64,000 nucleotides of DNA from a virus (lineage: Duplodnaviria; Heunggongvirae; Uroviricota; Caudoviricetes), in the IMG/VR virus record IMGVR_UViG_3300006204_000001. One strand, written 5' to 3'. The position numbers were made by a program, and so were the translations under genes. The notes beneath the pieces are model-generated. The model did no database searches, had not been told where the DNA came from, and saw nothing but the letters and a program-made list of their open reading frames with translations. This document shows, one piece after another, positions 20,911 to 44,400 of this stretch (its first letter is position 1; each line of letters opens with the position of its first letter).

Positions 20911-23520
20911 TTATCCTTCATATCCAGCTGGATATTTAATATCGATGATTGGTCTATCTGCTTTAGGTATTGGAGTTGCCATTATTTTTTTATAACATGC
21001 AAGAAGTTGTGTACGTATAGCTTCCAATTGGGGTTTTGTATGAGGTACTACATATTTATTACTTCCAACTTCTAATAATTCTATATACCATTCCACTATC
21101 TCTAATTTACCAAGACAATATGATGCAATCATCATTTTATCATTAGCATCTTTGATAGCTTCTGTCTCTATAGAAATATATGCTACTAAGTCTGATGGAA
21201 TCTTTTTTAATTTTTTAACAAAGAATTTTTCATACATTGCTTTTGTTTCTTTGTCTGCATTCATCATACCTTCATGATCAATATTCTCTGATATAAATTT
21301 AGATTCACTATCTTTGATTTTATCATTAAATTTATTATGATAATAATCATCAATAGCTTCTGATAAATATGATAATTCTCTCATATTATCAGAATCATCA
21401 CATGCTTCTCTTAAAGCTTTAACCATTTCTTTTACATCATCTACAATCTTTTTCTTTTCATTTTCAGGAGATGCATATTTAGAGTAAATACCTCTAATGA
21501 ATCTATTAATTGTATTAATATCCTCTTGTGATATTTTAAATGTATCCTTATTATCCATTTTTACATCATCGAATACAAATAATAACTTCATAGGATAAAT
21601 TACTAAACCTGATAATTTAGTTGTAGATACTAAATGTTTTAGATTATGATTCATTTTCATAATTTCACTAGTTAAGTGTTTAGCATATTTTTCTATTTTA
21701 GAATCATAATATTGAATAGCAGCTTTAAAGAAATTAAATGCATCATCAGGATTTTTCATTGTATGAAATATTCTAGGTGACATTTTAATTTTTATTTCTG
21801 GTATTCTATGTAAAAATGCATTAATTGGTTCTCTACCATCTACAAATCTAGCTATAAAATCTTGACTCATAGTAGGTATCTTAAATTCAAGAGTATTATA
21901 TGACTGATATGAATTCAATGTAATAGTAAACTTTTTAAATCCATTAGCCCATTTAGGTAACAGATTTTTTGTGATAATATTAGCATATATATTAGCCGTA
22001 TATTGACTCATCTTATATTTATTATCTTTAGTAGATGTCTTATTGATAATATCCTGTGATAACGTACGTAAAGTAGCTTTAGCTTGTTTCTCAGTCATGT
22101 CTGTATTATATTCTTTCTTATAATCAGGATTGGACTCAGGATCAACTGATTCTGTTATTTTATTGATATTATCACTAATAACGATCATATCTGCATGTTC
22201 ATATATATCATTTAATGATTCCCTAAATGATTCATAAAAATCATTTAAATTAAAATCAGATGTTGTAATTCCATTTAACATAGCTATCATATTATTCATT
22301 TTAGCATTTTCATAATATTCAGGATTTCTCTTTTTATCTTTCTTAGATGGATGATTATATACAATATCACCATTAGCTGCATCTCTTGAATTAATATCAT
22401 CCATTTTAGCCCCTCGGGCATATTTTAAATGTTCTATACCACTGATCATATCACTTGTTTTATCAACTACTTCACCTTCAAAATCAGTATAGCGAAGTTT
22501 ACCTTTAGGAAGTTTAGTTGTTTTAAATGATGAATTGTCATCAATTTCTCCAACTTTAACTACAGGGAATTCATCCTTTGAAACATTTTTTTCTATATAT
22601 GATTTATCTGATTTCGTCAATTCTAAATATTTAAATGAAGATCTAGCAGGTAAATAAAATAAACCTATAACTCTTGATTCTTTTAATCTTTCACCAGTTT
22701 TTCTATCTATGATAGCAAGAACTTTTTGTCCATGTGATGCATGATCAGGATCACCTTTTTTGTTTATAGTCTTTTTCACTTTATCTGTAGTTTCTTTAGA
22801 TGTTCTAAGTTCAATATTTTTTTCAGACTTTTTATGTCCATACTCTTTATTTTTATATGCACCACCAGCCATATCTATTTTGGCATCATCTAATGAATAT
22901 ACTATTTTGATTGCATGACCTGTATCATAATCAAAACCAAGTCTAAAATCATATTTTAATTTACTATGAGATTTTTCCAATAAATATTCTAATTCATCAA
23001 TATCATATGATTCATATAATTCTTTTGCTTCTTTATATATCCTTTCACGTCTATCAAAGAATAAATCCCATATTTCTTTAGATTCTTTATTTGATAAATA
23101 AATATCAAAACCTTCATATGATTCCCCATTACTAGATTCATTATCTAGTTTAACATCATATTTTTTTCTAATAATTCCTCTTACATTTTGGAATAAATCA
23201 TTTATTAATTCACTTAATAACGTTTCTATCCAACCATATTGATGATTAGTAAAATGACCTGTTACTTGAATCATACATTCATATTTTTTTCCATTCTTAT
23301 ATACTCTAACAGATCCACATTCAGTATTTCCTCCAGGTTTAGTACAAAAATCATCAATACATGACATAGCCCAACTAGAAGATTTTAAATCTGAATAAGA
23401 ATCTTTATCTATTAAACGATACATCTCATCTTTAATAATCTTATTTATATCAATAATCTTCTTTTGAATATTATCAGGTAAGTCTTTAAGATATCCATCT
23501 TTAACTTTACTTCTTTTCAT
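20911..23520 (-). CDS. Modular putative head protein carrying copy A of the repeated SHxxLKYxFR module
   Basis: 869 aa, immediately downstream of the capsid gene; many hydrophobic-x-E-S/A motifs; module at 22309..22977. Confidence 0.65.
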   Translation of the reverse strand: MKRSKVKDGYLKDLPDNIQKKIIDINKIIKDEMYRLIDKDSYSDLKSSSWAMSCIDDFCTKPGGNTECGSVRVYKNGKKYECMIQVTGHFTNHQYGWIETLLSELINDLFQNVRGIIRKKYDVKLDNESSNGESYEGFDIYLSNKESKEIWDLFFDRRERIYKEAKELYESYDIDELEYLLEKSHSKLKYDFRLGFDYDTGHAIKIVYSLDDAKIDMAGGAYKNKEYGHKKSEKNIELRTSKETTDKVKKTINKKGDPDHASHGQKVLAIIDRKTGERLKESRVIGLFYLPARSSFKYLELTKSDKSYIEKNVSKDEFPVVKVGEIDDNSSFKTTKLPKGKLRYTDFEGEVVDKTSDMISGIEHLKYARGAKMDDINSRDAANGDIVYNHPSKKDKKRNPEYYENAKMNNMIAMLNGITTSDFNLNDFYESFRESLNDIYEHADMIVISDNINKITESVDPESNPDYKKEYNTDMTEKQAKATLRTLSQDIINKTSTKDNKYKMSQYTANIYANIITKNLLPKWANGFKKFTITLNSYQSYNTLEFKIPTMSQDFIARFVDGREPINAFLHRIPEIKIKMSPRIFHTMKNPDDAFNFFKAAIQYYDSKIEKYAKHLTSEIMKMNHNLKHLVSTTKLSGLVIYPMKLLFVFDDVKMDNKDTFKISQEDINTINRFIRGIYSKYASPENEKKKIVDDVKEMVKALREACDDSDNMRELSYLSEAIDDYYHNKFNDKIKDSESKFISENIDHEGMMNADKETKAMYEKFFVKKLKKIPSDLVAYISIETEAIKDANDKMMIASYCLGKLEIVEWYIELLEVGSNKYVVPHTKPQLEAIRTQLLACYKKIMATPIPKADRPIIDIKYPAGYEG
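22305..22360 (-). repeat. 56 bp perfect repeat, copy 1 (inverted relative to 42842..42897)
   Basis: Minus strand reads atataatcatccatctaagaaagataaaaagagaaatcctgaatattatgaaaatg. Confidence 0.95.
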
Positions 23521-23577
23521 TATTATCTACTCCTTTATTATAGTTTATAATTTTTATAGTCTGGTAAATAAATAAGT

Positions 23578-23615
23578 AATATAGTAAGTGAGCTAAATAG
23601 CTCACTTACTATATT
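23578..23615. terminator. Strong terminator after major capsid gene
   Basis: aatatagtaagtgagct/agctcacttactatatt long stem. Confidence 0.85.
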
Positions 23616-23658
23616 TTGAGGATTTTATTATGTCAGTGAAAAAGAATAATACCCAATT

Positions 23659-25497
23659 TTATGCTGCTGCCTTCCAAGGTGCACCTGTAATAGGAGGTCT
23701 AGAAGGAGCATCTCCATATACTTTATCAGAATTAAGAATAATAAGATCAGCCTGAATACCCTGAATACTCATTGTCTTAAATCTTGCTGTTGCAGTTACG
23801 ATATTATATGCACCTGCAGGAGCCTGAGGACTCTGATAAGCTGTCTGAGATTGAGAAGTAAACAGATGATTTGTATACTTCAAATGTCTATATGACACAT
23901 GATCAGGACTTGTAGGATATCCATAAATATGAAGTACAAGCTCTCTGTTATTTGTTTCATCAACTGGATCAATTGTATATGCATCATAAAGATTAGATGC
24001 AACTACTCTAATGTTAGCACCAAGATCAGAAGCAAAACCATATGATCCATTACACTTAATACCTCCAATAGAAGTTCCAGATGACTGCTTCCATTGAATA
24101 TACTCTGTAAGCAACTGTGTAGCCATTGGATTGCCAGTAATTACAAATGAAAGATCATCCAACTTTGTAAGTTCTGTTAACTGATAAATGATGGAACGAA
24201 GTCTAAACTGAATAGCTGAAGCTACATACTTAAACGGATCTCCAGCATAACCTGCAGGAGGCTTAATATCACATGTATAAGTCTGAGCCAATGATTCAAG
24301 TTTATACGTATCAGTTGTAACACCATTAAACTTAGCCTGTTCATCACATAAGAACTTGATAACTGTCATGCACTCTTCCATTTCCTGAGTCTTTGTAATC
24401 TCATCAACCATTCTATTGTAATAGTTGATATCAAGAAGAGCTGCAGCATCATCGATCTGCTCAATTGTGAATGGCATGTTCCAACGAGGACCATCCTCAA
24501 TAGTAAAACGAATAATATCACGTTTCTCTCTTACAGATACACTTCTAAGATTCTTCTCATTGGAAAGATATCCAGAGAATACTACACCAGTAACCTGTCC
24601 AGAAGTAGATGCAATACTTACTGTACCATTCTTGAAGTCTACACGTCCGCCAAGTTCATCTTCAACATGAGTTCCATTATAATCAAAATCAAGATTACCA
24701 TTTACAAATGTACCATTTGTCGAGAACTCAACTGTGATACCATTACCATTCAAAGGAATAGTCTCATCACCAACCTGAACTGCAATAATCTTAAACTGGA
24801 ATGATAACTGATCAAGACCTTTTGTACCATCTGTAAGATTAGTAATAATATCATATTTACTCAATCTTCCATTTACAAAAGGAACAACAACTTCTTTGAT
24901 CTTATGACCCTTAGCTGCATCATAAATCTTTTCCCATGTACCATCAAACATACACTTAGGATATTCATACTCATCGCCAGTATTGTTATCAATAAGATAT
25001 GTTGTTCTAATATGCTTAACGATATTAGGTGTCTTAACAGACTCAACCTCAATAATATCTTTAAGAATAGAACTAAAGAACTGTTTAACGAGTACAGGGA
25101 ATTCAAGTGTAGCAATTGGCAAAAATGCAGTAATAGCTGCAGACTCAGTATAATTCTTAACCTTTGTATCCCAGAAGTTGTTAACCTGATCAATTACATA
25201 CTCAATATGAGGATCATTTTCTGATGTTTGACGATAAGCCTCAAATACAGGTTCCAATAGAGCTTCCTTATATCCATTCATGAATTCTCTATCAGAGATC
25301 ATCTTGGTGATATCTCTCTTAATATCGATTCCTCTTTCTTTATAGCCTTCACAAATTGAACTAAAATGATCATCGAATGACTGTACATTTCCATCTGCAC
25401 TTTTAGCATTAAAAGCAGATGCTGAAGTTACAGGATTTTCTTTTCTTGATGCTTCACTTGCTGATTCATAAAACCAGCTAACCTTATTTGTAGTCAT
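23659..25497 (-). CDS. Major capsid protein precursor
   Basis: 612 aa; N-terminal propeptide-like region ending YTE/SAAITAFLP...FPVL; own upstream late motif and strong terminator; resembles phiKZ/AR9-type MCP. Confidence 0.75.
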   Translation of the reverse strand: MTTNKVSWFYESASEASRKENPVTSASAFNAKSADGNVQSFDDHFSSICEGYKERGIDIKRDITKMISDREFMNGYKEALLEPVFEAYRQTSENDPHIEYVIDQVNNFWDTKVKNYTESAAITAFLPIATLEFPVLVKQFFSSILKDIIEVESVKTPNIVKHIRTTYLIDNNTGDEYEYPKCMFDGTWEKIYDAAKGHKIKEVVVPFVNGRLSKYDIITNLTDGTKGLDQLSFQFKIIAVQVGDETIPLNGNGITVEFSTNGTFVNGNLDFDYNGTHVEDELGGRVDFKNGTVSIASTSGQVTGVVFSGYLSNEKNLRSVSVREKRDIIRFTIEDGPRWNMPFTIEQIDDAAALLDINYYNRMVDEITKTQEMEECMTVIKFLCDEQAKFNGVTTDTYKLESLAQTYTCDIKPPAGYAGDPFKYVASAIQFRLRSIIYQLTELTKLDDLSFVITGNPMATQLLTEYIQWKQSSGTSIGGIKCNGSYGFASDLGANIRVVASNLYDAYTIDPVDETNNRELVLHIYGYPTSPDHVSYRHLKYTNHLFTSQSQTAYQSPQAPAGAYNIVTATARFKTMSIQGIQADLIILNSDKVYGDAPSRPPITGAPWKAAA

Positions 25498-25569
25498 GAT
25501 TAAATCTCTCCTTTTCTAAAATAATTTTTTTGGTCCACAATGTTGTGAATTTTTAACATATGGTTATTA

Positions 25570-25581
25570 TATTACTATGTT
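25570..25581 (-). promoter_or_regulatory. Putative late promoter AACA-N6-TA
   Basis: AACATAGTAATA upstream of capsid gene. Confidence 0.5.
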
Positions 25582-26187
25582 TTATTGCTGTTCTTTAATA
25601 CCTTTATGGATGTTTTTATCAAACATTATATTAGCTAACTGCAATAAATTCAAACACTTGTTAAAAAATAGTAGATTATCTGAGAAATCAGTATTAGTGA
25701 ATTTATGTTTTAAATATAAATGAATATTTTCATCTAATCTTTCTAAGATTTTTAATGTATCTATCATCTTATCCGATAATACAAAAAGTATATCACTATT
25801 CTTCTTAACAGCTGTTAATTGTGTTTGGACTTTGTTTAATAGTGATAAAAATCTTTGATATAATTTTTGATTTATTATAGCAGAAATCTTTTCACTTAAC
25901 TGCATATTAGTTTGATTATTAGTAAGATCTTCTAAACCATCTGTATCAAATTCTTCATTAGATTCATCATCTATATTTTCAAAAGATTCATCGTCATTAA
26001 AATCCATATCAGGTGGTGCTTGATCACTCATATCATCAGAATTGCTATCTCCACCAGTTGGCATATCTGGTGGAGAAGAATCTTCTATATTTTGGTTATC
26101 ACTACTTATATCAGGAGGATCATTTTCAGCTTCTTTATAATATTTATTATTGTACATTTGAAGCCAATCCTCAAATCCAACTCCCAT
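25582..26187 (-). CDS. Putative head-associated protein with acidic disordered N-half
   Basis: 201 aa; YYKEA motif followed by D/E/S/P-rich tract; adjacent to MCP. Confidence 0.6.
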   Translation of the reverse strand: MGVGFEDWLQMYNNKYYKEAENDPPDISSDNQNIEDSSPPDMPTGGDSNSDDMSDQAPPDMDFNDDESFENIDDESNEEFDTDGLEDLTNNQTNMQLSEKISAIINQKLYQRFLSLLNKVQTQLTAVKKNSDILFVLSDKMIDTLKILERLDENIHLYLKHKFTNTDFSDNLLFFNKCLNLLQLANIMFDKNIHKGIKEQQ

Positions 26188-26206
26188 TTATAATCTCCTT
26201 TCTATA

Positions 26207-29086
26207 TTAAATTATTTGACCTTTTCGCCATGCTTTATTTGATGCTGGTCCAGATATTCTATAAAGTTTTTGACTTATTTGATTCTTTAAACGTGTTAAT
26301 TGAGATACTGCTTTAATATCACCTTTTCCTTCAGCATGAGCAATCTTCTTTTCTATGATCTCAATTTCAGTTTTAATTTCCCCGATCATTTCATGTCTAA
26401 GTTGTTCCATTTGATTTTTATTCTTTGATTTTCTTGCTATAGAAAATCCTAAAAAGAATGGATTGAGTAGTAAACCAGCTTTCAAATATGCTCCTGTTTT
26501 AATACACCAATTAACTGCACTTAAAAGATTACTTCTTGCTGCAGGATCAGCTATCTTTTCTTTTATTTTTGTCTCATCTGTGTCTTTCCAATCCTGGATT
26601 GTTTTCATAACCCAACCTTGTGTTTTTCTAATTGGTTTTATAGCTGCTCTACCAGCATTTTGTACATTTTGAACTGTTCTTTTTGCAGATTGTTGAGCTT
26701 TAGTAGTAGCACGATCAATATCAGTTAAAGCATCTTTTACAGGATGATCAGATTCAGGTTTATTATCATCTGCATCTCCAACTTTCTCAGTTACATAATT
26801 CTTCCTAAATCTATCAAAAAAACCTTCTGTAAATGGTTGATTTGGTAATATATTCATTTTATATGGTATTACAATAGATTCATTATGTTCTTTAGATGAA
26901 TGATCGTCTTTAATGTTTTTATCAGTAGAATTATCAATATTATGTACTGAATGGTTATCATGTCTGCTATTATTGATATTATGGACAGAATGATTGTCAT
27001 GCTTACTATTATCATTGTCTCTATTAAAAGAATTAGTATTCTTATTCATAGAATTATTGTATGTATAATAGTAATAATTATTAGTAGAAGAGTGATCCTC
27101 TTTATCAGAAGAAGATACTCCTAATTCATCTGATACATCATCATAGTGATCATTTTCATCTTTGTTTGCAGATGGTCTACTAAAATCTTCTAAAGATTTA
27201 TTTTCATTATCTGTATCATCATTCTTTTTATCAGGGCTATCAATTTCTCCATAGCTTAAATCATGATTACCTCCGAGATATGTAGGAGCTTTACCTGTAT
27301 ATTTATCAGTCGTATTTGATAATCTATATGATTCATTAATATTATCATCATTTATAGGATCTGCTGATTTTACTAATGTACCATCCTCATTCAATAAACC
27401 ATCAAATTCTTCATATAAAGAATATACTTCATCTTGTAACTTAAATGCTTCTTCTGTTGATTCAGCACATACAATCTGATATTCTTTTAATTCAATAAGA
27501 TCTTTTATATTGTCTATATCTTCTTCTGTATATTCTAAGAATCCTTCTGTATTACCTGTAATCATTGATTCTCTAAATATAGACATATTATTATCCTGCA
27601 TTATTTTTACATGAGCTGATAATGAATTTGATTCTATAATTTGAAAATTCTTGTTATCTAACAAATTAGAATCATATTTGCAACATTCAACTATTAATTG
27701 AGATACATGAGGATCATTATAAATCCTACTAAAGTATTCTAAAACTAAATTAATAGTATTATTACCTAATTGATTTGCAGTAATAATAATATCAGGTATA
27801 GCTACTTCTTCATATTTTTCTGTTAAACCTACTAGAAAAGTTCTACCTTGTTTAGAATTATCATTCAATGAATAATAATCTTCAATATATTCTTCCGCAG
27901 ATTCTTTCAACGAATGACGAGGATCTTTACGAGAAGCTCTTCCTCTTATAGTTACACCTTTTCCTTGCAATTTCTTTTTGAGAACTTTGATTTTATCATT
28001 ACATTCTTTTATTTTATTTTCATATTTTTTAATCTGTTGCTTAGTTTCTTCAATAATTCTCAAATGAGATTCACTATGATTATCATATTTTAATAAATCA
28101 TTAAGGTTATTTTTACATCTTTCAATATTGAATTCTGCACGTTCGATCTCACCCTCATAGAACTTTATATCACCACTAATAGCATAATCTTTAGGTTTCT
28201 CTCTTTTATTTTGAATTTGTTCACCACGTCCATCTCCATTATTTTCTTTTTTCGATATATCTTTTCGTATATCATATGTTATAGAATCATTTAATATATC
28301 ACGGGTTTCTTCATTTTTATGACGATAATTATCATATTTATTTTTTCTCATTGATGTTGATTTAAATGTCGGAACATTTTCTATATCACCAACTTTAATA
28401 TGAAATATATCTGAATCATTATATCCAAATATACCTGTAACATCTGCTTCTTGTAATCGTTTATTAGTTATAACATCAATTATAGCTAATACTTTTTGAC
28501 CAGATGATTTATGGTCAGTATTACCTTTACTACGTATTCTACTTAATTTTTCTTCTTTTGATAACCCTTTAAGTTTTTTATAAGATGTATGATGTGCAAA
28601 ACTGGGATCTTCATCTAATATCATATTATCTAATGAATATACAATTTTCAATGGATGATCTGTTTCTACATCTGTGACCATTCTAAAATCATATTTCAAC
28701 TTACCATGTGATTTTTCCATGAATGATCCATTTGTTATAATTTCATACATATTAAAACATTCTTTGAATGATCTCTTATATTTCTCCAATTCTTCTAAAT
28801 GTTTCCTATAATTAGAAGGATCTTTCTTTTGTGATTCACATTTTTTAATACAATTTTCAAAACATGAAATAACATCATCATATACTGCAACAGATACACC
28901 ATATTTTTCTACAAAGGTTTCCCATGTTTCTAATCCTATACTAGATTCAATGATATATTTTAGATTAGAAATATAACTTGCAGGATTGGTGTTTAATATT
29001 TCATTGATACATTCTGAATATGTATCGATGTCAGATTGTCTTCCACTACTTTTAGCAATGGAGTATAACGATTTAATATCTTTCAT
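26207..29086 (-). CDS. Modular putative head protein carrying copy B of the repeated module
   Basis: 959 aa; module starts at SFME-KSHGKLKYDFR (28717); many hydrophobic-x-E motifs; helical C-terminus. Confidence 0.65.
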   Translation of the reverse strand: MKDIKSLYSIAKSSGRQSDIDTYSECINEILNTNPASYISNLKYIIESSIGLETWETFVEKYGVSVAVYDDVISCFENCIKKCESQKKDPSNYRKHLEELEKYKRSFKECFNMYEIITNGSFMEKSHGKLKYDFRMVTDVETDHPLKIVYSLDNMILDEDPSFAHHTSYKKLKGLSKEEKLSRIRSKGNTDHKSSGQKVLAIIDVITNKRLQEADVTGIFGYNDSDIFHIKVGDIENVPTFKSTSMRKNKYDNYRHKNEETRDILNDSITYDIRKDISKKENNGDGRGEQIQNKREKPKDYAISGDIKFYEGEIERAEFNIERCKNNLNDLLKYDNHSESHLRIIEETKQQIKKYENKIKECNDKIKVLKKKLQGKGVTIRGRASRKDPRHSLKESAEEYIEDYYSLNDNSKQGRTFLVGLTEKYEEVAIPDIIITANQLGNNTINLVLEYFSRIYNDPHVSQLIVECCKYDSNLLDNKNFQIIESNSLSAHVKIMQDNNMSIFRESMITGNTEGFLEYTEEDIDNIKDLIELKEYQIVCAESTEEAFKLQDEVYSLYEEFDGLLNEDGTLVKSADPINDDNINESYRLSNTTDKYTGKAPTYLGGNHDLSYGEIDSPDKKNDDTDNENKSLEDFSRPSANKDENDHYDDVSDELGVSSSDKEDHSSTNNYYYYTYNNSMNKNTNSFNRDNDNSKHDNHSVHNINNSRHDNHSVHNIDNSTDKNIKDDHSSKEHNESIVIPYKMNILPNQPFTEGFFDRFRKNYVTEKVGDADDNKPESDHPVKDALTDIDRATTKAQQSAKRTVQNVQNAGRAAIKPIRKTQGWVMKTIQDWKDTDETKIKEKIADPAARSNLLSAVNWCIKTGAYLKAGLLLNPFFLGFSIARKSKNKNQMEQLRHEMIGEIKTEIEIIEKKIAHAEGKGDIKAVSQLTRLKNQISQKLYRISGPASNKAWRKGQII
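26928..27010 (-). repeat. Two tandem 13-codon repeats (NS[KR]HDNHSVHNI[ND])
   Basis: Seen in translation of 26207..29086. Confidence 0.8.
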
Positions 29087-29155
29087 AATTTACATCAACC
29101 TCATTTCTTAAAGATTTAAAATTTTAATATTTGGTGAAGGAGATATATAAAGAAT

Positions 29156-30895
29156 ATGGCGACACAAGTGAAAAAGAAAAATACTATAACTAAAATCCAA
29201 GATGTTAAAATGGATAAAATTAAAGTATTCTATAGGAAAAGCATTCTTAAATCTGTATTAAAAATATTAGTAATGGAGCATGGTGGATTTAGAACATTTA
29301 AATCTGTTAAAAATATAAATAAACTATTTACCCATCTAGATTTATCAAAATATAATAATAATGAAGAATTAAAATCATATATATGGTGTATATCATTTAT
29401 ATCAAAACATTGGTTAGATGGGATAACTAATGTAGATCTTATATTAGAGGGAGCTAAACGACAACCAGAATATGATAATATTAAAGATAATATTATCAAT
29501 CAATGCATGAATGATAAAAATGAAATCACATATCCAGAAGCAAAAGGAATATTTGATTTAATAGGTGAAGCATTACAATATGGATTTATAGGTTCATTAA
29601 AAGATGAATACATAAATCTATTAGAAGATATTAATATGGAAAGCCCAAATGCATTCAAAGAAGTAGTAAATCGATTATTCTTAATATCAAAATCATTGAT
29701 TGATATTCAATATGGTACTAATATGGTATCAGATAAAGTAACGTTTAATACAGCAGATATGAGTTCTATAAGAAATGCTATTAGAATGACTCAAGAATCT
29801 TTATCATCTACAAATAATATGTTTAAAATGGGAATTCGTAGATGGAATACTTTATTATCTCCTGCACTAATGAATGGAAGATTTTATTTATATGCTGGCC
29901 CAGTTGGTGCTGGCAAATCTATTATATTACAGAAAACTGCAACAGATATAAGAAAATATAATCCAGACTATCAACCTAAAACACCAGGTATGAAACCATG
30001 TGTATTATATATTACTATGGAAAATTTCTTTACTGAAGTAATTGAAAGATTATGGAACATGGAATTTGATGAATCAATTACAAATTATAGTGAAGAAGAA
30101 GCAATGAATATGATATGTGATACTTTAGGCATTACACAAGTATTGAAAGAAGATGTTAAAGTTAAAGATGTTGATACTGATAAACCTCTAGAAGCCCAAT
30201 TAATAAAAAAGCCAAAAAATAAATCTAATATTGAAATTGTAATGAAATATTTTTCTTATAGAGAAATTAGTACAGATGATCTTCATACTATTATTCATGA
30301 TCTTAGAGAAGATAATATGGAAGTATGTGCATTAGTATTAGATTATGTAAAAAGAATTGCTCCTGCTACTCCAACACCGGATAATGAAAAACTAGAATTA
30401 AATCATATAGGTAATGAGCTAAAAGCCATAGCTGTAATATATGATATACCTGTAATAAGTGCTCATCAATTAAATAGAGTTGCAACATCGATTATTGATA
30501 ATGCAGAAAGATCAGGTAAAACAGATTCATTGAAATTAGTAGGTAAAGAGCATATCGGAACAGCATATGAATTGGCAGAAGTATCTGATTGGTTAGGTTT
30601 ATGTAAAATATCATATAAACCTGGAACTAATCAAAGATATTTAGAATTAAATGTCGTTAAAAGAAGACGTATTGATCAAGCAGAAGCAGAGTTTGCTAAG
30701 TATACTTATTTAGCACATCCATTTGCTCCTAACAATGGAATGAGATTATTAGATGATATTAATCTTGATAAAGTATTATCATTACAATCATTAATAAGTG
30801 ATATAAATACAGTAGGAATGGAAAAAACAAATGCAGTACCAAGATTAAGAACGATGGAACAAAGTGAATTTATTGAATTAGATGAAGACTATTAA
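29156..30895 (+). CDS. dnaB: DnaB-like (SF4) replicative helicase
   Basis: GPVGAGKS Walker A, ITMEN, VLDYV Walker B, SAHQLNR. Confidence 0.9.
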   Translation: MATQVKKKNTITKIQDVKMDKIKVFYRKSILKSVLKILVMEHGGFRTFKSVKNINKLFTHLDLSKYNNNEELKSYIWCISFISKHWLDGITNVDLILEGAKRQPEYDNIKDNIINQCMNDKNEITYPEAKGIFDLIGEALQYGFIGSLKDEYINLLEDINMESPNAFKEVVNRLFLISKSLIDIQYGTNMVSDKVTFNTADMSSIRNAIRMTQESLSSTNNMFKMGIRRWNTLLSPALMNGRFYLYAGPVGAGKSIILQKTATDIRKYNPDYQPKTPGMKPCVLYITMENFFTEVIERLWNMEFDESITNYSEEEAMNMICDTLGITQVLKEDVKVKDVDTDKPLEAQLIKKPKNKSNIEIVMKYFSYREISTDDLHTIIHDLREDNMEVCALVLDYVKRIAPATPTPDNEKLELNHIGNELKAIAVIYDIPVISAHQLNRVATSIIDNAERSGKTDSLKLVGKEHIGTAYELAEVSDWLGLCKISYKPGTNQRYLELNVVKRRRIDQAEAEFAKYTYLAHPFAPNNGMRLLDDINLDKVLSLQSLISDINTVGMEKTNAVPRLRTMEQSEFIELDEDY

Positions 30896-34430: not shown

Positions 34431-34452
34431 TGAATGGGAAAGGAAAAATACT

Positions 34453-34797: not shown

Positions 34798-34824
34798 AAA
34801 ATATTATTAAAAAGGAGATATAAG

Positions 34825-35517: not shown

Positions 35518-35549
35518 TACATTCCGGCATAAATAAAAAAATAAAATAA

Positions 35550-35572
35550 AGAGGGGTCTATAAGACCCCTCC
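35550..35572. terminator. Terminator between convergent genes
   Basis: agaggggtct/agacccctct hairpin. Confidence 0.75.
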
Positions 35573-35585
35573 TCCATCTTTATTT

Positions 35586-37058
35586 TTAATCGATATCTAT
35601 AACTTTAAATGATTTTGATTTTCTTTTTAATACATCTGCTCTAGCATTAGCCCATGCTCTTAATTGTTTTACATCTGCATCTACAATATCCCACATATAA
35701 GTATCTTTTTCATCATCTCTTCTTCTTAAACGTCCACTAACTTGATCTGCAAGTATCCAACTTTTAAATTGTTGCACTACTATTAATTTAGCTAATCCTT
35801 TCCAGTCAAATCCAGTACCACATGATGCTACTGTGGATATTAATATATCAGATTCACTTTTATATTTTTCATTCTCCTGTTTAGTATTTTTAGAATGATA
35901 TGTTCCAATCTTTTTATCAGGAAACATTTTTTCCGTATAATCACGAATAACATTTACAGATGTTATAGTAGGAGCTAATATTAAAGTTTTACCATATGTT
36001 ACTTCTTTTTCTGCCATCTTAATTATTTTTAATACCATAGTGAGAAATTTTGTCATAGTACCATCTGATGGTATAGTCAATGCAGTATATGCTGGTATAC
36101 TAATACCATATCGCATCCATTTGCCAGCTCTTTCAGAATATCTCATATTTTCAGATACTGCTCTAATTTCTTCTTTAGATAATCCAGAATGCCCCCACAT
36201 CATTCTTACATGCATATGTGGTTTCATTCCATATACATTTCCTGGTTTTGGATTAAACAATGTAGGTTTCTTTTGTTGTTCTTTAAATAAACTGAGATCA
36301 CCAAACATTTTCTGATATAGGGAATTTTCTTCTTCTCCAGACCTACCAAATGTACCTGTAAGATATAAATTATATCTTATATTTGAATTTGATTCAACTT
36401 GTACTATATTATGAAACCACATTTGTACTTCATCTATTACTTTTAAACCAAATTTATTTAATTTCATTATTTTCTCTAAATCATATTTTTTATTTAATGA
36501 TGCTAATGATGCTTGTGAAATAATAACGAAATCTTCTTTAACATTAAAAAAATCTTGTGGACCACTTACATTTTTTATTCTATTAGGATCTACTTTAAAC
36601 ATATTTACCAATGTTTCATACCATTGTTTTTTAATTCCACTAGTAGGAGCAATAAATAATGTTCTTACAGATACTGCACATGCACAAAAACAGGCAACTA
36701 CGGTCTTTCCAGAACCAGTTCCTAGGATCGCCCCGATTTTCTGGGACTTATTAAAGCCATCTAAAATATATTTTATACAATCAATTTGTAATTGATTACG
36801 TGGTTTAATATCGTGCTCTATTTTAGGGGTTATAGCTGCATAATCCCAATATTCTTTTGTATGATCTTCAATTGGTATTTTTGGAAATGCTTGTCTTATA
36901 GTCTCTTCCATACCTGGTGCAAAAGCTATAAAATTATCATCTGGATCATTATACCAGAATACTCTATCATCTGTACCAACTAATTTATCCAATTTTAATT
37001 TTTCAAATTCTGTATATTCTGTAAATATTAAACGTGTTCTTTCCTTTCTTATTCTCAT
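35586..37058 (-). CDS. SF2 DNA helicase (UvsW-like)
   Basis: PRNQLQ Q-motif, GTGSGKT, IDEVQ, LTGT, GTGFD, QVSGRLRR. Confidence 0.9.
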   Translation of the reverse strand: MRIRKERTRLIFTEYTEFEKLKLDKLVGTDDRVFWYNDPDDNFIAFAPGMEETIRQAFPKIPIEDHTKEYWDYAAITPKIEHDIKPRNQLQIDCIKYILDGFNKSQKIGAILGTGSGKTVVACFCACAVSVRTLFIAPTSGIKKQWYETLVNMFKVDPNRIKNVSGPQDFFNVKEDFVIISQASLASLNKKYDLEKIMKLNKFGLKVIDEVQMWFHNIVQVESNSNIRYNLYLTGTFGRSGEEENSLYQKMFGDLSLFKEQQKKPTLFNPKPGNVYGMKPHMHVRMMWGHSGLSKEEIRAVSENMRYSERAGKWMRYGISIPAYTALTIPSDGTMTKFLTMVLKIIKMAEKEVTYGKTLILAPTITSVNVIRDYTEKMFPDKKIGTYHSKNTKQENEKYKSESDILISTVASCGTGFDWKGLAKLIVVQQFKSWILADQVSGRLRRRDDEKDTYMWDIVDADVKQLRAWANARADVLKRKSKSFKVIDID

Positions 37059-37130
37059 ATCATCAATCCACCTTATATAAGTTTTTCGTTATTCAATCGT
37101 TGAATATATAGTCAGATAAAAAGATAAACA

Positions 37131-37155
37131 CTGGAGTAGCATTTCGCTACTCCAG
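37131..37155 (-). terminator. GC-rich hairpin with no long ORF ending at it
   Basis: ctggagtagc/gctactccag; T-rich tail on the minus strand. Confidence 0.6.
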
Positions 37156-37357
37156 CATTCATCTTTGCCAAAAATAAAAAGCCCCAAAATCATAAAAGAA
37201 GGAAGATGCCAAAAACCACTTTTATGAAGGTAATATACAATCATTTGTTTTTTATTTTCCTAAGAGATTTAATTATACTGAATCAAGACATATTAATTTT
37301 AATTTATTAATCCAATATTCACAAATGATTATTTCTATGTAAAGGTAATAATAAAAT

Positions 37358-37368
37358 TATATATTCTA
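37358..37368 (+). promoter_or_regulatory. Putative early promoter
   Basis: TATATATTCTA upstream of accessory operon. Confidence 0.6.
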
Positions 37369-37398
37369 ATATAGAATAATATGAAAGGAGAAAATTAT

Positions 37399-37887
37399 AT
37401 GTATGATTTAAATTATTATTCAGAAAATATTGTTTGTAGAGGTCACGGTATAAGTATTTGTGTATGTAAAGAAAAATTACACAAATTAATTGTACCACCA
37501 TATTTCATTGTGTTTAATAATGAGGATATTGAAAAAGCAGATAAATCTATCAGATTAAAATTTAAGAGTAATAAATCTGTTAAAGTAAATTGTCCATTAG
37601 GAAAACAATGGTGGGAAATGAAACCAAATGAAATACTTGAACTAAAGAAATTACTTAGAGATACTAATGAATATTCAGAATATTCTAATTGGGACACTAT
37701 ATGTTTTATATGGAATAAAGTATATAAAACTATAAATTACAAAATGAAAATTACTGAATGGAAAAGGGATCCTCATTATATCGATAAAGCAAGTGCATAT
37801 GCGTTTTGGGATTTTACAATTAGCAATAATTTAGATATTCCAATTGTATGGGATACTACTGATTATAGGAAGGAGAATAAAATATGA
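37399..37887 (+). CDS. Hypothetical protein
   Basis: ATG 37399 after AAAGGAG. Confidence 0.7.
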   Translation: MYDLNYYSENIVCRGHGISICVCKEKLHKLIVPPYFIVFNNEDIEKADKSIRLKFKSNKSVKVNCPLGKQWWEMKPNEILELKKLLRDTNEYSEYSNWDTICFIWNKVYKTINYKMKITEWKRDPHYIDKASAYAFWDFTISNNLDIPIVWDTTDYRKENKI

Positions 37888-38204
37888 TTTATCATGGGAA
37901 TTTGATTGAATTTGAAAGGACAGAAAAAATACCAGCAAATGAAATGAGTAATTTCAACTATTATTACGAAAAAAGATTAGTATTAGCAGATTTATTTTCA
38001 TTAACAGGTGGAAAAGTTGAATATGATATATATTTCGATGATACAGGATATGAAAATATTTATGTTGGTAGAGCAGAAGACTTAATGACTACCGCAAATG
38101 GAATAATGAGCGAATATTGTCAATATCCTGTCCATAGTATTGATATCAGTAGAGATGGAAAATTACTTGTTGTTTTATATAATGATTTTGGAGGATGTGA
38201 ATAA
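37884..38204 (+). CDS. Hypothetical protein, paralog of 40498..40812
   Basis: FERTxK...LADLFxLxxGKxEY...YxGR shared. Confidence 0.75.
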   Translation: MIYHGNLIEFERTEKIPANEMSNFNYYYEKRLVLADLFSLTGGKVEYDIYFDDTGYENIYVGRAEDLMTTANGIMSEYCQYPVHSIDISRDGKLLVVLYNDFGGCE

Positions 38205-38206
38205 AT

Positions 38207-38848
38207 ATGTCAGTATTAAATAAGAAAATGTTACCACGTTATGAATATATACGAGATAGTATTATTCAATTATTAACAGAATATCTGAATAAATATCAGT
38301 TGCCATCTATAAAATACACATTCATTGATGAATTTGCTAAAACAGAAGATAGAGAACTTATAGATGAATCAGGATTGTTATTAACTGATAATCCACCAAG
38401 CATGGGAACGATAATATCTGTAGGTCATGATAAGGAAACTAGTATTGTTAAAGAAATGACGTTTTTATTAGTAATACCAAATTCCAATTTATTAGAGACA
38501 TGGATTAATACAGGATTGGATGATATTAAAACCTTATTAATCATGCATACGGTATTAAAACATGAGATTGGGCATATTATTTATAATTGGTCTTTTATGG
38601 GTAATTATATAGACACTATACATGAAAAATTTAAGAAAGATGAGGAAGTTAAAAAGGATTTTTATAAAAAATATAAAATTAATAAAAATACTAGCATTAA
38701 ACAAAGAGCAAGAATAATGATACACTATAATAGATTAGAACCAGAAGAGAAAAATGCTAATGAGTTAATGGGTATAACTGATCAAGATTGGGTTGATTAT
38801 ATAAATGCTATTTATGATACTACATATAAATTAAAGGATTTATTATAA
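38207..38848 (+). CDS. Zincin-like metallopeptidase (HExxH), paralog of 40781..41377
   Basis: LKHEIGHII and downstream EKNAN. Confidence 0.7.
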   Translation: MSVLNKKMLPRYEYIRDSIIQLLTEYLNKYQLPSIKYTFIDEFAKTEDRELIDESGLLLTDNPPSMGTIISVGHDKETSIVKEMTFLLVIPNSNLLETWINTGLDDIKTLLIMHTVLKHEIGHIIYNWSFMGNYIDTIHEKFKKDEEVKKDFYKKYKINKNTSIKQRARIMIHYNRLEPEEKNANELMGITDQDWVDYINAIYDTTYKLKDLL

Positions 38849-38865
38849 AAGGAGGATATAATAAT

Positions 38866-39255
38866 ATGAGAAAACAATGGCATGTTGGAGAATTTTGTGG
38901 ATTTGAATATGATGACGGTAAATGGGTAAAAGCAGAAATTATTAGTGTTAAGAAACCTAGTAGCGTAGGTGAAGAATATTCTGTTACTATAAAATATGAT
39001 GAACCTAGGACTGTTATAACTTCATGTGGAAGTCATATGTTACATGTATTAGGTAAACAAAGCATAAAAATACAAGAGTTACAGAATATAGAGAAATATA
39101 ATAAATTAGCCAAATTCGTATTTCCTAAATCTAATGGTGAATATTCTAAGCTAGATGATTTAGAAAAAGCATGTATTAGAAAAATATATGATAGACTTAT
39201 ACTCATTATATCAGAAGAGAAACTTTTAATTATGAAAGAGAAAGGGGTATTATAA
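38866..39255 (+). CDS. Hypothetical protein with SH3/Tudor-like N-terminus
   Basis: WHVGEFCG...DGKWVKAEIISV...YSVTIKYD pattern. Confidence 0.6.
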   Translation: MRKQWHVGEFCGFEYDDGKWVKAEIISVKKPSSVGEEYSVTIKYDEPRTVITSCGSHMLHVLGKQSIKIQELQNIEKYNKLAKFVFPKSNGEYSKLDDLEKACIRKIYDRLILIISEEKLLIMKEKGVL

Positions 39256-40017
39256 TGGAAGATATATTAGGTAAATTAAATCCTAATAAAAAAAATAGTG
39301 GCACGCAATTATGGCACTATTAGTCATCTTAAAGGTTCAAAGATGATTAATTCAAGAGATAAGTTAATTGGCATTAACCAAGAAATTATGTTAACTGAAA
39401 AAATTAGGAATAGAGGTGATTTAATAATTATAACTGAAAAAATTGATGGATGTAATGTTGGTGTATTTAGATGCAATAATAAATTATATCCACTAGTAAG
39501 AAAAGGTTATGATGTTAGAACTAATCCGGTTAGCTGGATTAAATCATTTGCTAATTATGTAGAAGATAGAGCAGAACAGTTTTTTGATTTATTACAAGAT
39601 CAAGAAAGAGTTTGCGGTGAATGGATGATTCATCAACATACATTGAAATATAAACTCAAAGGAGATCCTTTTATTGCATTTGATATCATTAGAGGAGATC
39701 ATAGAGAACGATATATTGACATGTGTAAAAGACTTGATAAAGTCAATATAGAACATACTGGGTTAGTTCATATTGGTTCTCCTATGCATCCTAATTTGGC
39801 AATGTTATTATTAGGAAAGGGTTTCCATGGGGTTGAAGATGATCAACCAGAAGGAATAGTTTACAGATATGAATCAGCGAAGTATGGGTTTGAATTTTCT
39901 GCTAAATTCGTTGATAATTATAAATTAGGCATTAATGAATATTTTAAAGTAGATGATCCATATTCATGGAATGAAGTTAAGGGTAGATACAAAAAATATT
40001 GTATCTTGAATATATAA
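39255..40017 (+). CDS. ATP-dependent RNA ligase (nucleotidyltransferase); likely start 39255 with a +1 frameshift in an A8 run, or GTG start at 39298
   Basis: TEKIDGCN motif I, CGEW, FIAFDI, PEGIV, AKFV. Confidence 0.85.
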
Positions 40018-40030
40018 GGAGCATAAATAT

Positions 40031-40426
40031 ATGATTAATGTTATTCCAGAAGAAATATTAAAGCGTTCTAAGAGTGCTTTAGATGATGATTGTTTTAAAA
40101 TTTATAATAAATCACATCAAATTTATATTTATGACTTATTAGAACGAATAGAACCATATATCGATATTCAAATTATCAGTTTAAAATTATATACAGATGG
40201 TAATATGATCATAGCTGAAAATACTAAAGAAATAATATATAAAGGGAGAGGTATTTTCTTATTGAATGAAAGTAAAAGGATTGACTTAACTTTAGAACGA
40301 AATTCATTAGTAAAGTTACCAGTTTCATTAATTTCATTTAACGAAAATATATTGTCTGTATTTGTTGATAAAGAATATATTGATAAATTAGATGAAAGTG
40401 GATTTGCTAATATTATTGATTCATAA
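40031..40426 (+). CDS. Hypothetical protein, possibly a distant paralog of 37884/40498
   Basis: IYDLL...IYKGR...PVSLIS...ILSVFV pattern. Confidence 0.6.
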   Translation: MINVIPEEILKRSKSALDDDCFKIYNKSHQIYIYDLLERIEPYIDIQIISLKLYTDGNMIIAENTKEIIYKGRGIFLLNESKRIDLTLERNSLVKLPVSLISFNENILSVFVDKEYIDKLDESGFANIIDS

Positions 40427-40435
40427 TTATACAAT

Positions 40436-40469
40436 AATGATTCACCGCTTTAATATGCGGTGAATCATT
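40436..40469 (+). terminator. Intrinsic terminator
   Basis: aatgattcaccgc/gcggtgaatcatt followed by a T-run. Confidence 0.8.
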
Positions 40470-40497
40470 TATTTTTTATAAATTTAGGAGGTAAATA

Positions 40498-40812
40498 ATG
40501 GAAAATAAATATATGTTCGAGAGAACAGATAAATCAATAAATGATTATCCTGAAAAGGTAATTATTTTAGCTGATTTATTTCATCTTGGTGATGGTAAAA
40601 TTGAATATATAATAATGGAATCAGAATCTGAAGAAGAATTGTATAATGGACGACAGGAGTATTTAGAATGGACAACCGAAGGTTGTGCTTCATCCTTATG
40701 CAGTAGAGTTATTGATTATATTGACATAGGAAGCAATAAAATACTTGTATATTTGAAACCTGAAGAGAGGAATACGGATAATGAACAATTCAAAGATGTT
40801 AAAAATGACTAA
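40498..40812 (+). CDS. Hypothetical protein, paralog of 37884..38204
   Basis: Shared motifs; AGGAGG RBS. Confidence 0.75.
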   Translation: MENKYMFERTDKSINDYPEKVIILADLFHLGDGKIEYIIMESESEEELYNGRQEYLEWTTEGCASSLCSRVIDYIDIGSNKILVYLKPEERNTDNEQFKDVKND

Positions 40813-41377
40813 TAAATTGATACATGATTCTCTCGACTATTGGTATAGTACCTGTAGTAAATATAATATTACTGAAGTAAGTCTTAACATATATGGAAAT
40901 GCATGTGTAGATGATAAAGTACAATACGTTAGGAATCATATATCTGATACCAGAGCAGTAACAGTATCAATAGCTCATACGGATGATAATCTAAATATAG
41001 ATCCCAATGATAGAATCATAAAATCTGTAACATCAGAAGTGTACATCTCATTACAAGAATTGTATGCTATATTAATAGATACTGAACTTGATTTCAATAA
41101 AGCATTAAAAACTATGGAATTTACATTACGTCATGAAATCGGGCATATTATAGTCAAAAATAAATTTGTTGATAAACCGATAAAAGAATGGGATAAGGTG
41201 GATTATGAAGAATCTATCGGATATAATGGAATGCCTACATTAAGAAAAAATGCTAGTAAGCAAGCAAGATTGGAATGGCTATTACAATACAACAGTTTGC
41301 CATCTGAAAAAGCAGCTAACGATGCAGTTGATATCACAGAAGAAGACATTATTGAGGATTTTAACAGATTAAGTTAG
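40781..41377 (+). CDS. Zincin-like metallopeptidase (HExxH), paralog of 38207..38848
   Basis: LRHEIGHII...KNASKQAR...YNSLPSEKAAN. Confidence 0.7.
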   Translation: MNNSKMLKMTNKLIHDSLDYWYSTCSKYNITEVSLNIYGNACVDDKVQYVRNHISDTRAVTVSIAHTDDNLNIDPNDRIIKSVTSEVYISLQELYAILIDTELDFNKALKTMEFTLRHEIGHIIVKNKFVDKPIKEWDKVDYEESIGYNGMPTLRKNASKQARLEWLLQYNSLPSEKAANDAVDITEEDIIEDFNRLS

Positions 41378-41383
41378 TTAAAC

Positions 41384-41414
41384 ATATTCACTCCATATTA
41401 AGTGGAGTGAATAT
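41384..41414 (+). terminator. Intrinsic terminator
   Basis: atattcactcca/tggagtgaatat followed by a T-run. Confidence 0.8.
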
Positions 41415-41441
41415 ATTTTTTTGTTGAAAGGAGATATATTA

Positions 41442-44400
41442 ATGAGTGAAATAAAAATTGATAATTCAATTAAAAATGCTATTACAAAAGGAAACTGGAA
41501 GGATCCAGGAGCAAAACTATATGATGATATTTTAAAAAATACAAATTGGAAGGATCTTTTAAAAGAAGCATATCTTGTTGCTCCAGTTAATGATATAACT
41601 AATGATCCAAGAGTACGTACGAGATTAAATAGTTCTGGATGTAAATATCCTCATCATCATATAAAGGATGGTAAACTTGTTGTATCAATTTCTGGATTGC
41701 GTTCTGCATATATATGTGCAAGAAATCAGGGTTATTTCAATAATGATTCAAATAATAGACCTGAATATAGTAGATCAGTAGTTACTCATTTGAATAGACA
41801 TTGTAAAGAGTTAGGAATTGAACCTATATGGCATCACGGTGAACTTTATTTTCAGGATATTAAATCAAAGAAATTTGTTGAATATACTGATATAAATGAA
41901 TTTAATGAAGATTCAGATGAAAAGTTATATAGAGTTACATTTAATGACATTGGTATTTATGAAGCTATGAGACAACATATGTCATTAGATAAATGGAGAG
42001 ATTTTTTAAAATCTGATAATGCTACATGGTTACCAAAACCAGATAAATATCCAGATGGATATACTTCATATTTCACTAAAGAAGGAATTGATAAATTTAA
42101 TGAATTAGTATATCCTATATCATGTGGAATTCTTGGAGATAATATTAAATATGAAGAATTTGATCAGGATGATATAGGAGATATTGTTTATAAAGATAAT
42201 TATCAAATAATAGCCGAATATAAAGAATTTAACGAAGCATCACATGGAAAATTAAAATATGATTTTAGAAAAGGTTATGATTGGAATTCTGGTCATGGAA
42301 TAAAGATTATATATTCATTAGATAATATTGAAATCACTAATATAGGAAAAGGATTTTCAACTGATGCTGATAAAGATAAAAATATAAAAGATATAGAAAA
42401 AAATATTAAAAATAAAGGTAATATGGATCATGTATCTAAAGGTCAAAAAGTATTAGCTATAATAGATAGAGTAACTGGAGAAAGACTTAATGAATGTGAT
42501 TATATTGGTCCATTTGCTCCAGCTATATCAAATCGTAATCTAGATTTATCTGATGATATAGATGATCTGCATGATTATTATAATTCTAAAGGTCCAGATT
42601 TTGTAAAGCGATATATTAATCATATTAAGGTAGGAGAAAATGATAATACTAGCGTATATAAATCTACTCATTGGTTCAAAAATGATATGAAGGAAGTAAA
42701 AGATAGATATGGATATATGGATAAAGTAGATAATACTATTGTAAGGGGAACTAAAGCAGAAGCTCTTAAATATGGAAGAGGAGCTAAAATGAATGATATT
42801 GATAATAATGATGCTTTAGGTATGGTAGGATCATTTCCAAAATATAATCATCCATCTAAGAAAGATAAAAAGAGAAATCCTGAATATTATGAAAATGAAG
42901 AATTTACAGAAAAATCGCATTCTAATTTGAAATATGCTTTTAGAATGGCTGTAAATCCTCATAATGGCCATTTTATAAAAATCGTATTTGATTTAGATTC
43001 AGATAAAGTATTACAAATAGGAGATCATACTCAACAATCTGGAAGAAATAAAGAAAAAGATGAAGAAACAAGAAAGAATATAAGAAAAAATGGATCTAAT
43101 GATTTTTCTTCTATTGGACTAGTTAAAGGTATTCAAGATTTAGATACTAAAGAGCAACTTAAATCAGTAGATACTCTTGGTGTTATTGGAGCTAGTAATC
43201 AAACTAGGTTTAGTGTTCCAGAAGAATTAAGAGATAAGCGTTTAGGAGATGAGCAATATAATATGTTTTCATATCCATTAAAGGATAGAGAAAAAATTAT
43301 TAAAACATTAAATCTTGATAATGCTAAAGATATAATAAAATTTACAGTTGGAGAAGTTGAAAAGGTTCCAAGTTATAAAGCTACATTATTATCTAAATCA
43401 ATATCTGGTGTATATCATAATCAGTTTAATCCGAAAGGAAGAGGAGATCAGAGTAAAAGTAAAAGTTATGATCAAAGTGTATATGCAGGATTGAAATCTT
43501 TAAAGTCAAGATACAAAAAAGTTCATGATGTATTAAAGGATAATGATTATTATGAAGACGATTTTGATTATATTGAGAAATTATTAAATAAATTAGAAGA
43601 AGATGTTGATAAACATAGTGATGAAAAATATGGTCAAAGTACAATGCATCCAAGATATAGCAGAAGATATAGTAACATAGACAGTTCTATTAGCGAACTT
43701 GAAGTTGAAATAAAAAATATGAAAAAGAAAAAAGATAGTAAGGTAGATAAACAAATCAATGAAAATTTCAATATTATGTACACTATAATTCAGGAACAAA
43801 CAGGAGCTAATTTATTTGATGATAACTTTGAAATATTTGAAGAGTCTGATAAAATAGATATAGTAAAGGAAATTAATTACTGTATGGATATGTTAAATAA
43901 AACAGGAGATGAGAAATGGTTAAATAAATTTAAATTAGCTCAAAAGAAATTGATAAATGAATCATATGCAGAATCATCTGATATCAAAAAAAACGATGAA
44001 TTTGTTCCAATATTTGGAATATTAAAGAAAACATCTTTAGATGATAAAAGAAATGATGGTTCTGAAAAAGATGAATATGATAAGGAAATGAGTAAATTTC
44101 AAAAACAAATTAGTACTCTTACATTCGGAGATAATTATGCTCATGCATTAATATCTTTTGATGATAAGTTTAATCATCTATATTCTTTTGGTGATGAAGG
44201 AATTGAGGATGACAGTATATATTTAGATAGTTGGATGGCTACGGATTCTATCTATATCTGTGTAATGTTTGTTACAAAAGATGAAAGAGATAAGATGAAA
44301 ATATATGTGGATGATATACTTGCTCATCCAGAAAAAACATCATATGCATTTTCTAATTTATTAAAAGCATATATAAGTAAACCTGCGAAGATAGATAAAC

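Follow-up and report, generated by a model that had tools for sequence, protein, structure and literature searches.

Two virion-type genes of a jumbo phage, pointing away from each other, share a 56-bp stretch that is identical, in frame and inverted, its two copies lying some 20 kb apart. The question this raises is whether the repeat is the trace of a past exchange between the genes or makes the DNA between them invertible. The window analysed here is a stretch of 64,000 nucleotides from a complete 289,059-bp genome (Caudoviricetes; IMG/VR record IMGVR_UViG_3300006204_000001). In an initial annotation the repeat was attributed either to gene conversion or to shufflon-like inversion. We regard it as a fresh recombination mark in this 289-kb gut jumbo phage, which may occasionally flip the 20 kb between its copies. 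The features concerned are listed below.

20911..23520, minus strand: gene A (P0001, 869 aa), located immediately downstream of the gene for the major head protein
22305..22360, minus strand: left arm of the repeat (56 bp, perfect, inverted), within gene A
22306..23001, minus strand: module copy A
22361..42841: segment between the arms (20,481 bp), with the 5' parts of genes A and C, gene B, small genes and the four genes marked below as inside the segment
22885..22977: a further inverted block of homology, imperfect (93 nt, 78%) and pairing with 42234-42326, at the proximal border of the module (SHGKLKYDFR...IKIVYSLD)
23659-25497: major head protein, inside the segment
28307..28759, minus strand: module copy B, in gene B (26207-29086, P0002), short type without the end motif
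29156-30895: DnaB-like helicase, inside the segment
35586-37058: second helicase, inside the segment
39298-40017: RNA-ligase-like gene, inside the segment
41442..44717, plus strand: gene C, 1091 aa from an ATG start as in the database proteins (a TTG at 41421 gives 1098 aa)
42210..42896, plus strand: module copy C, missing from gene C of some near-identical strains (P0086)
42842..42897, plus strand: right arm of the 56-bp repeat, inside gene C; module D begins directly after it
42897..43490, plus strand: module copy D, short type without the HPSKKD end motif

The perfect in-frame repeat at a module border is confirmed. Positions 22305-22360 and 42842-42897 are complementary at 56 of 56 nt (100%), synonymous choices included, in inverted orientation and with a spacing of 20,481 nt; the 56-mer is confined to these two positions in the genome. 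Module copies A and C each have, at their distal border, an arm that encodes the peptide YNHPSKKDKKRNPEYYEN in frame. By codon alignment the tract in gene A runs from the final base of codon 387 through Y388-N405 to the initial base of codon 406; in gene C it is read in the same frame, its end falling at N492 (1098-aa reading). The flanks are unalignable, both upstream (AANGDIV versus GMVGSFPK) and downstream (AKMNN versus EEFTE). Over the 199 aligned codons of the two modules outside the tract, 44% of residues and 57.5% of bases are identical, as against 100% of bases within it, a pattern expected of gene conversion. Where residues are identical the same codon is used at 54 of 86 positions (63%) outside the tract and at 18 of 18 inside. 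The GQKVLAIID block, unlike the tract, does differ in codon choice between modules A and C, as first noted, at 4 of its 9 codons, and the second-longest exact run between genes A and C is 21 nt. The DNA identity of the arms is established in one genome, other strains having been compared as protein. An assembly artefact as the source of the identity in the window was ruled out at the protein level: the same 18 residues recur in proteins A and C of assemblies from JGI, ENA and Logan.

The long type of module has a conserved, charged motif at its end, Y-x-HPSKKD-x-K/R-x-NP-x-x-Y, and this part of the protein is predicted to be unstructured. Given that the whole family keeps the HPSKKD..NP..Y core and that codon usage shows a strong bias, the identity might be put down to selection against changes in the peptide combined with extreme AT codon bias, with no exchange at all. 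However, a match of 18 of 18 codons has, given identical residues, a probability of P = 1.4e-3 under genome codon usage and of P = 2.4e-4 at the empirical same-codon rate of 0.63. The motif itself is also far from fixed: the 33 distinct variants in the family have on average 10 of 18 residues in common (maximum 16), and two copies within one protein of other phages are alike at 11-12 of 18 residues in a protein-level comparison. Free variation is seen across the family at seven or eight of the 18 positions, which in A and C are nonetheless identical and derived, and contig motif scans did not find the same 18 residues and codons in many unrelated lineages. Codon bias alone was rejected as the cause of the tract on the match probability and this family variation, and we consider selection with codon bias hardly credible. 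The derived states common to A and C are absent from orthologues elsewhere, again as expected of gene conversion, and the NPEYYEN ending is confined to the window's lineage among the 33 variants. Because codon bias and protein conservation fail to explain the identity and the ending is lineage-specific, the tract is well supported as a record of recent exchange between paralogues A and C, which was the minimum claim for this locus. The relatives that were fetched hold at most one motif copy per genome, and within-genome homogenisation was compared at the protein level.

Genes A, B and C are not recognised by Pfam or PHROGs, and gene A has no significant Foldseek match in PDB. Its C-terminal part matches predicted structures annotated 'Peptidase [Myoviridae sp.]' (E = 4.9e-11) and, more weakly, predicted structures of an AR9 'zincin protease' and an RP12 virion protein. 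In gene A, module A (174-405) lies between an N-terminal domain (1-160) and a C-terminal part (406-869), both conserved; AlphaFold gives residues 337-473, motif included, a pLDDT of about 30-53, between better-folded parts. In gene C the N-terminal part is followed by modules C and D and then by a C-terminal domain, which relatives carry in fusion with many enzymes. The best reading is that genes A and C encode modular virion-type polyproteins of a jumbo phage, predicted from sequence to be part of the virion and putatively processed. The candidate protease site proposed at the junction is plausible: relatives carry Y-K-x-E-S just after the motif, while the window has Y-Y-E-N.

Module borders are variable in other ways as well. 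In close strains, P0004 and P0210 (on 84-kb and 11-kb contigs) have an 87-bp tandem duplication containing the motif, and in near-identical strains module C is precisely missing from P0086 and P0253 (4 contigs). The loss of one arm in the P0086 strains suggests that it carries no fitness cost. A clean module swap is seen in a related species: P0007 and P0018 share 97-100% identity beyond the module but 23-57% within it, and the breakpoints fall at SHGKLKYDFR and HPSKKD. Natural alleles with breakpoints at conserved border motifs (P0007/P0018, P0005, P0086) are the pattern expected of modular exchange.

The geometry of the locus is also as claimed: because the 5' halves of both genes lie between the arms, a crossover would exchange them in frame. 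One such predicted chimera, P0005, is present in public JGI data. It is a protein of 949 aa in which the first 485 residues of gene C, as far as the motif and with module C included, are joined to the last 464 of gene A. Its N part is identical to the window allele of C and its C part is 2 residues off the window's A; the join keeps the frame exactly, and neither end of the gene is truncated. This predicted product of a cassette swap is confined to one JGI contig of 4,937 bp; its reciprocal partner (A N part with C C part) was found neither among proteins of similar length nor among shorter fragments.

P0005 could also be explained by a past short exchange that left a gene-conversion scar and no inversion, the chimera being a mis-join through the 56-bp repeat in a low-coverage sample. 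The parental forms are found on about 38 contigs (about 21 with intact A and about 17 with intact C) versus the single 4.9-kb chimeric contig, and distant relatives are collinear with the window. P0005 bears a private substitution, I846R, in a column that is invariant in 18 homologues, which suggests low coverage of the contig. A repeat of 56 bp is longer than common small k-mer sizes, and coverage gaps on the other two arms could mimic a linear graph. Given the single short contig, the private substitution and the missing reciprocal partner, a low-coverage mis-join is possible. Against a scar alone stand the exact frame of the junction in a gene complete at both ends and the structural variants at the same motif described above, which sit on long contigs and show that the site is truly recombinogenic. 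Perfect repeats of about 50 bp, moreover, are enough for homologous recombination by phage and host. We consider this explanation a serious one, although rather unlikely.

The initial annotation saw no site-specific recombinase in the window, and this holds for the whole 289-kb genome: PF00239, PF00589 and PF07508 (Resolvase, Phage_integrase and large serine Recombinase) gave no match in the complete genome but matched control genomes, and no TnpB-type match was found anywhere in it. No phage recombinase of RecA, RecT or ERF type was recognised. The annotation had also called for synteny and pairing to be compared in relatives. Two distant complete relatives, G001 and G002, keep synteny, being collinear with the window; neither has an exact repeat between the module genes or a pair of motifs, so that the repeat is not kept at the same positions. 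No near relative was found by exact and degenerate motif scans of viral, metagenome and genome contigs, collections apparently without records close to the window's genome, and blastn against GenBank phages gave no match.

These results bear on whether the arms are maintained for a dedicated switch (a shufflon, a Gin/Hin-like system or a selected flip-flop) that varies virion cargo. The repeat is perfect, in frame and exactly at a module border, its predicted product exists in P0005, and a recombinase-free precedent has been reported in Anabaena cyanophages (bioRxiv 10.64898/2026.02.14.705889). However, a serine invertase or tyrosine recombinase of the kind that serves a shufflon has no match in the complete genome, relatives do not conserve the repeat, module C and with it one arm is missing from some near-identical strains, and the parental form dominates. 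A strong phenotypic switch is further argued against because cleavage at the junction would give the same mature fragments in both isomers. Shufflon-like programmed variation is thus not supported, and we judge a dedicated switch very improbable. Somewhat less improbable, though still doubtful, is that repeated flip-flop keeps the 56 bp identical and both isomers coexist in natural populations of the phage, a recombinase-independent switch that would re-link N-terminal cargo cassettes with other C-terminal parts of the virion polyproteins and flip the major head protein gene. Identical inverted repeats do flank the segment, at 56 of 56 nt, but they are far shorter than the 400-700 nt of the cyanophages.

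The reading that we favour, and consider probable, is that the linker motifs serve as homologous-recombination junctions, that an exchange made the tract, and that rare inversion is possible and not programmed. A module of ~200 aa would lie between variable N-terminal cassettes and conserved C-terminal parts, and conservation of the motif would let paralogues retain DNA similarity sufficient for homologous recombination. A short ectopic exchange (gene conversion) in the window's lineage would then have made 56 bp identical in A and C, and the perfect inverted repeat would now be a substrate for general, recombinase-independent homologous recombination. A crossover there would invert 22361-42841 and swap the N-terminal cassettes in frame. 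Such inversion would be rare and unprogrammed, the parental orientation being ancestral and dominant, and, should the prohead protease cleave at YYE|N, either isomer would give rise to identical mature fragments, making inversion nearly neutral. Several observations weigh against this favoured reading: the chimera is on a single contig for which I846R suggests low coverage, no reciprocal chimera was found at full length or as a fragment, no enzyme of RecA/RecT/ERF type was recognised, and a 56-bp conversion tract without flanking homology is short for classical gene conversion.

On the favoured reading, the locus displays, at single-crossover resolution, how virion polyproteins of giant phages may be reshuffled through linker motifs at module borders. 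With two such genes inverted in one genome, the same process could flip 20 kb, including the major head protein gene, and leave reading frames intact. The locus offers a concrete, inexpensive case in which to test for recombinase-free isomerism of jumbo-phage genomes, and a warning that assemblies of such genomes can differ or be mis-joined at short coding repeats.

Giant phiKZ-like phages have head and ejected proteins processed by a prohead protease, such as the SPN3US gp245 substrates (PMC10052503). The likeness lies in paralogous families whose N-terminal regions are long and removable, and in a cut after Glu that favours Ser at P1', a preference matched by the Y-K-x-E-S of the window's relatives; the window has N, not S, at P1', and its processing is predicted from the motif. 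Type I restriction-modification loci switch specificity through inverted repeats in inverted hsdS genes (PMC7394358), where in-frame repeats in two opposed paralogous genes likewise allow domain reassortment. Those loci, however, are compact, often have a recombinase nearby and have been shown experimentally to switch. In the Anabaena cyanophages, about 30 kb lie between inverted repeats of 400-700 nt and both isomers coexist (bioRxiv 10.64898/2026.02.14.705889). They too have a large lytic-phage segment between inverted repeats and no obvious dedicated recombinase, but the repeat in the window is 56 bp long, coding, in frame and not conserved in relatives, with one chimeric contig as the candidate trace of a second isomer. 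As in the Mu Gin/G, P1 Cin/C and R64 Rci shufflon systems, inversion would change which alternative part of two genes is joined to which constant part; here, in contrast, there is no recombinase gene, the segment measures 20 kb where those span a few kb, and a coding motif forms the arms, not a gix- or sfx-type site. In the distal tail fibres of T-even phages, recombination at short conserved motifs, the 'His boxes', reportedly swaps domains, as Tetart et al. are said to have described in 1998. There, too, module borders carry short, conserved protein motifs in which DNA similarity persists and which act as crossover points. The genes of the window, however, are of the head or ejected-protein polyprotein type and not adhesins, and because the two partners are inverted in one genome a single crossover would also flip 20 kb including the major head protein gene.

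The window corresponds to G000:C1:16512-80511 within a complete IMG/VR phage record of 289,059 bp (26.9% G+C) whose contig ends overlap by 104 bp; a single-base mismatch between the window and this record lies at window position 25873. A module of ~200 amino acids is present in four copies, and no more, in the whole genome. The genes concerned are as follows, in window coordinates.

20911-23520, minus: gene A (P0001, 869 aa), directly downstream of the major head protein gene, with module copy A at residues 174-405
22305-22360: arm of the 56-bp repeat in gene A
23659-25497, minus: major head protein (phrog_20655, E = 3.5e-26)
26207-29086, minus: gene B (P0002), with module copy B inside it
41421/41442-44717, plus: gene C (P0003), with module copy C at residues 264-492 and copy D immediately after it
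42842-42897: arm of the 56-bp repeat in gene C
44740-49197: polyvalent protein of 1485 aa with transglutaminase-like domains
Same region of the window: a DnaB-like helicase, a second helicase and an RNA-ligase-like gene

The initial annotation reported a perfect in-frame inverted repeat at the ends of modules A and C and read it as evidence of recent exchange at a module border; both points are borne out. The arms are complementary at 56/56 positions, account for both occurrences of the 56-mer in the genome, and encode YNHPSKKDKKRNPEYYEN, the final 18 residues of each copy, in the same frame. The sequences flanking this tract are unalignable between genes A and C on either side. Within the tract, residues (18/18), codons (18/18) and bases (100%) are all identical and the longest exact run is 56 nt; elsewhere in the two modules, identical residues make up 44% of 199 aligned codons, the codon is the same in 63% of these (54/86), 57.5% of bases are identical and the longest exact run is 21 nt. 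The HPSKKD..NP..Y core of this motif is conserved across the protein family. Nevertheless, selection and codon bias are insufficient to account for the identity, since 18 matching codons have a probability of 1.4e-3 under genome codon usage (2.4e-4 under the empirical same-codon rate) and the motif varies across the family: 33 distinct variants have on average 10/18 residues in common (maximum 16), and two copies within one protein of other phages have 11-12/18. Among these variants the ending NPEYYEN is confined to this lineage. The codon excess, the low sharing of the motif in the family and the lineage-specific ending thus identify the tract as a recent recombination scar, left where A and C exchanged sequence at a conserved linker motif.

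The in-frame swap of N-terminal cassettes that had been predicted has an exact counterpart in P0005, a 949-aa JGI protein retrieved from 5.8 billion proteins with gene A as query and encoded on a single 4,937-bp contig. Its first 485 residues are the N-terminal part of gene C up to and including the motif, without differences from the window allele; the C-terminal 464 residues of gene A follow, with two differences. One of these, I846R, falls in a column invariant in 18 homologues and thus hints that coverage of the contig was low, a condition under which the 56-bp repeat could conceivably cause a mis-join. The chances that this single recombinant contig is real are about even. Some 21 contigs have an intact gene A and some 17 an intact gene C, and protein searches did not find the reciprocal chimera (N part of A with C part of C), whether complete or fragmentary.

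Further structural variants coincide with these borders. A tandem duplication of 29 aa (87 bp) that includes the motif is present in P0004 and P0210, which are encoded on contigs of 84 kb and 11 kb. On four Logan contigs of up to 40 kb, P0086 and P0253 represent gene C without module C, which is missing exactly, KEF being joined to TEKSHS; since relatives have C-type modules in their gene C orthologues (P0096, for example), this is probably a deletion. A related species has the pair P0007 and P0018, in which identity is 97-100% outside the module and 23-57% inside it: the module is A-like in one protein and C-like in the other, with breakpoints at SHGKLKYDFR and HPSKKD. As P0005, the duplication, the loss of module C and this swap all fall there, the module borders of this phage family are genuine recombination junctions.

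The shufflon-like variation proposed earlier is not supported by these contig counts of ~21 and ~17 against one, with no reciprocal product and no recombinase match. The absence of a visible site-specific recombinase, claimed for the window, extends to the whole genome, which has no match to Resolvase, Phage_integrase, Recombinase or TnpB-type domains; nor were RecA, RecT or ERF matched. Synteny likewise argues against active inversion: two complete IMG/VR relatives, with genomes of 292 kb and 289 kb and 40-72% protein identity, are collinear with the window across a stretch that begins with genes left of A and extends to genes right of C, and neither has an exact repeat between module genes. 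One contains no modules; the other carries two copies in gene A but lacks them in gene C, and its polyvalent protein gives a full match and a partial one. A programmed switch is therefore unlikely, and the tract may instead permit 20.5 kb to invert on rare occasions by homologous recombination, exchanging cassettes in frame.

Gene A as modelled by AlphaFold (mean pLDDT 66.8) has better-folded parts at residues 1-160 (N-terminal domain), 187-336 (module core) and 474-850 (C-terminal part). Residues 337-473 between them, including the motif, are mostly of low confidence (pLDDT ~30-53), so a junction here should, on this model, be tolerated. Among predicted phage structures, those annotated 'Peptidase' match the C-terminal part (E = 4.9e-11), and those of AR9 and RP12 proteins match it weakly; gene A has no significant match among PDB structures. 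Immediately after the motif relatives have Y-K-x-E-S, which as a sequence fits the preference of giant-phage prohead proteases for Glu at P1 and Ser at P1' (PMC10052503); the window has Y-Y-E-N. If cleavage occurred there, both isomers would yield the same mature fragments and inversion would alter only the linkage of pieces within the precursors.

Further repeats and possibly mobile domains were observed. The 104-bp end overlap (G000:C1:1-104, 288956-289059) has a perfect inverted copy outside the window at 113374-113477; a repeat is thus where the circle was opened, and formally a second inversion isomer, far larger (~113 kb), is possible. Beyond these, the genome has over 20 further exact repeats of at least 40 nt, in clusters at ~156.5, 187, 251.3 and 272.1 kb and at ~7, 139 and 274 kb. 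In the 289-kb relative an inverted repeat of ~500 bp, a string of exact 22-46 nt runs (G002:C1:21570-22040 and 68569-69078; L023:1570-2040, L025:8569-9078), brackets ~46.5 kb that take in the entire head-gene region, with the polyvalent protein at one end and genes past A at the other. The last ~105 residues of gene A (~766-869; window 20911-21225) are ~70% identical to six-frame translations of three other IMG/VR contigs (L001-L003) that match no other part of the gene; this domain appears to be independently mobile. The C-terminal domain of gene C (~240 aa, window 43990-44717) has a paralogue at G000:C1:10057-11430 (38.5% identity) and in relatives is preceded by parts annotated as transglutaminase-like, GNAT acetyltransferase, helicase or uridine kinase; it resembles a shared anchor to which different enzymatic cargo is attached. 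Gene C is truncated on three ENA contigs (P0215, 852 aa, ...SSDIKKKR), ending at a poly-A run after GATATC (window 43960-44000), and the 250-aa P0251 occurs in an equal number of contigs, the longest also of 69,516 bp; these may reflect a homopolymer frameshift that detaches the C-terminal domain, or a sequencing error.

Two known systems come closest to the tract. One is the tail fibres of the T-even phages, in which domains are swapped through conserved motifs. The other is the cyanophages, in which genome isomers are flanked by inverted repeats (bioRxiv 10.64898/2026.02.14.705889).
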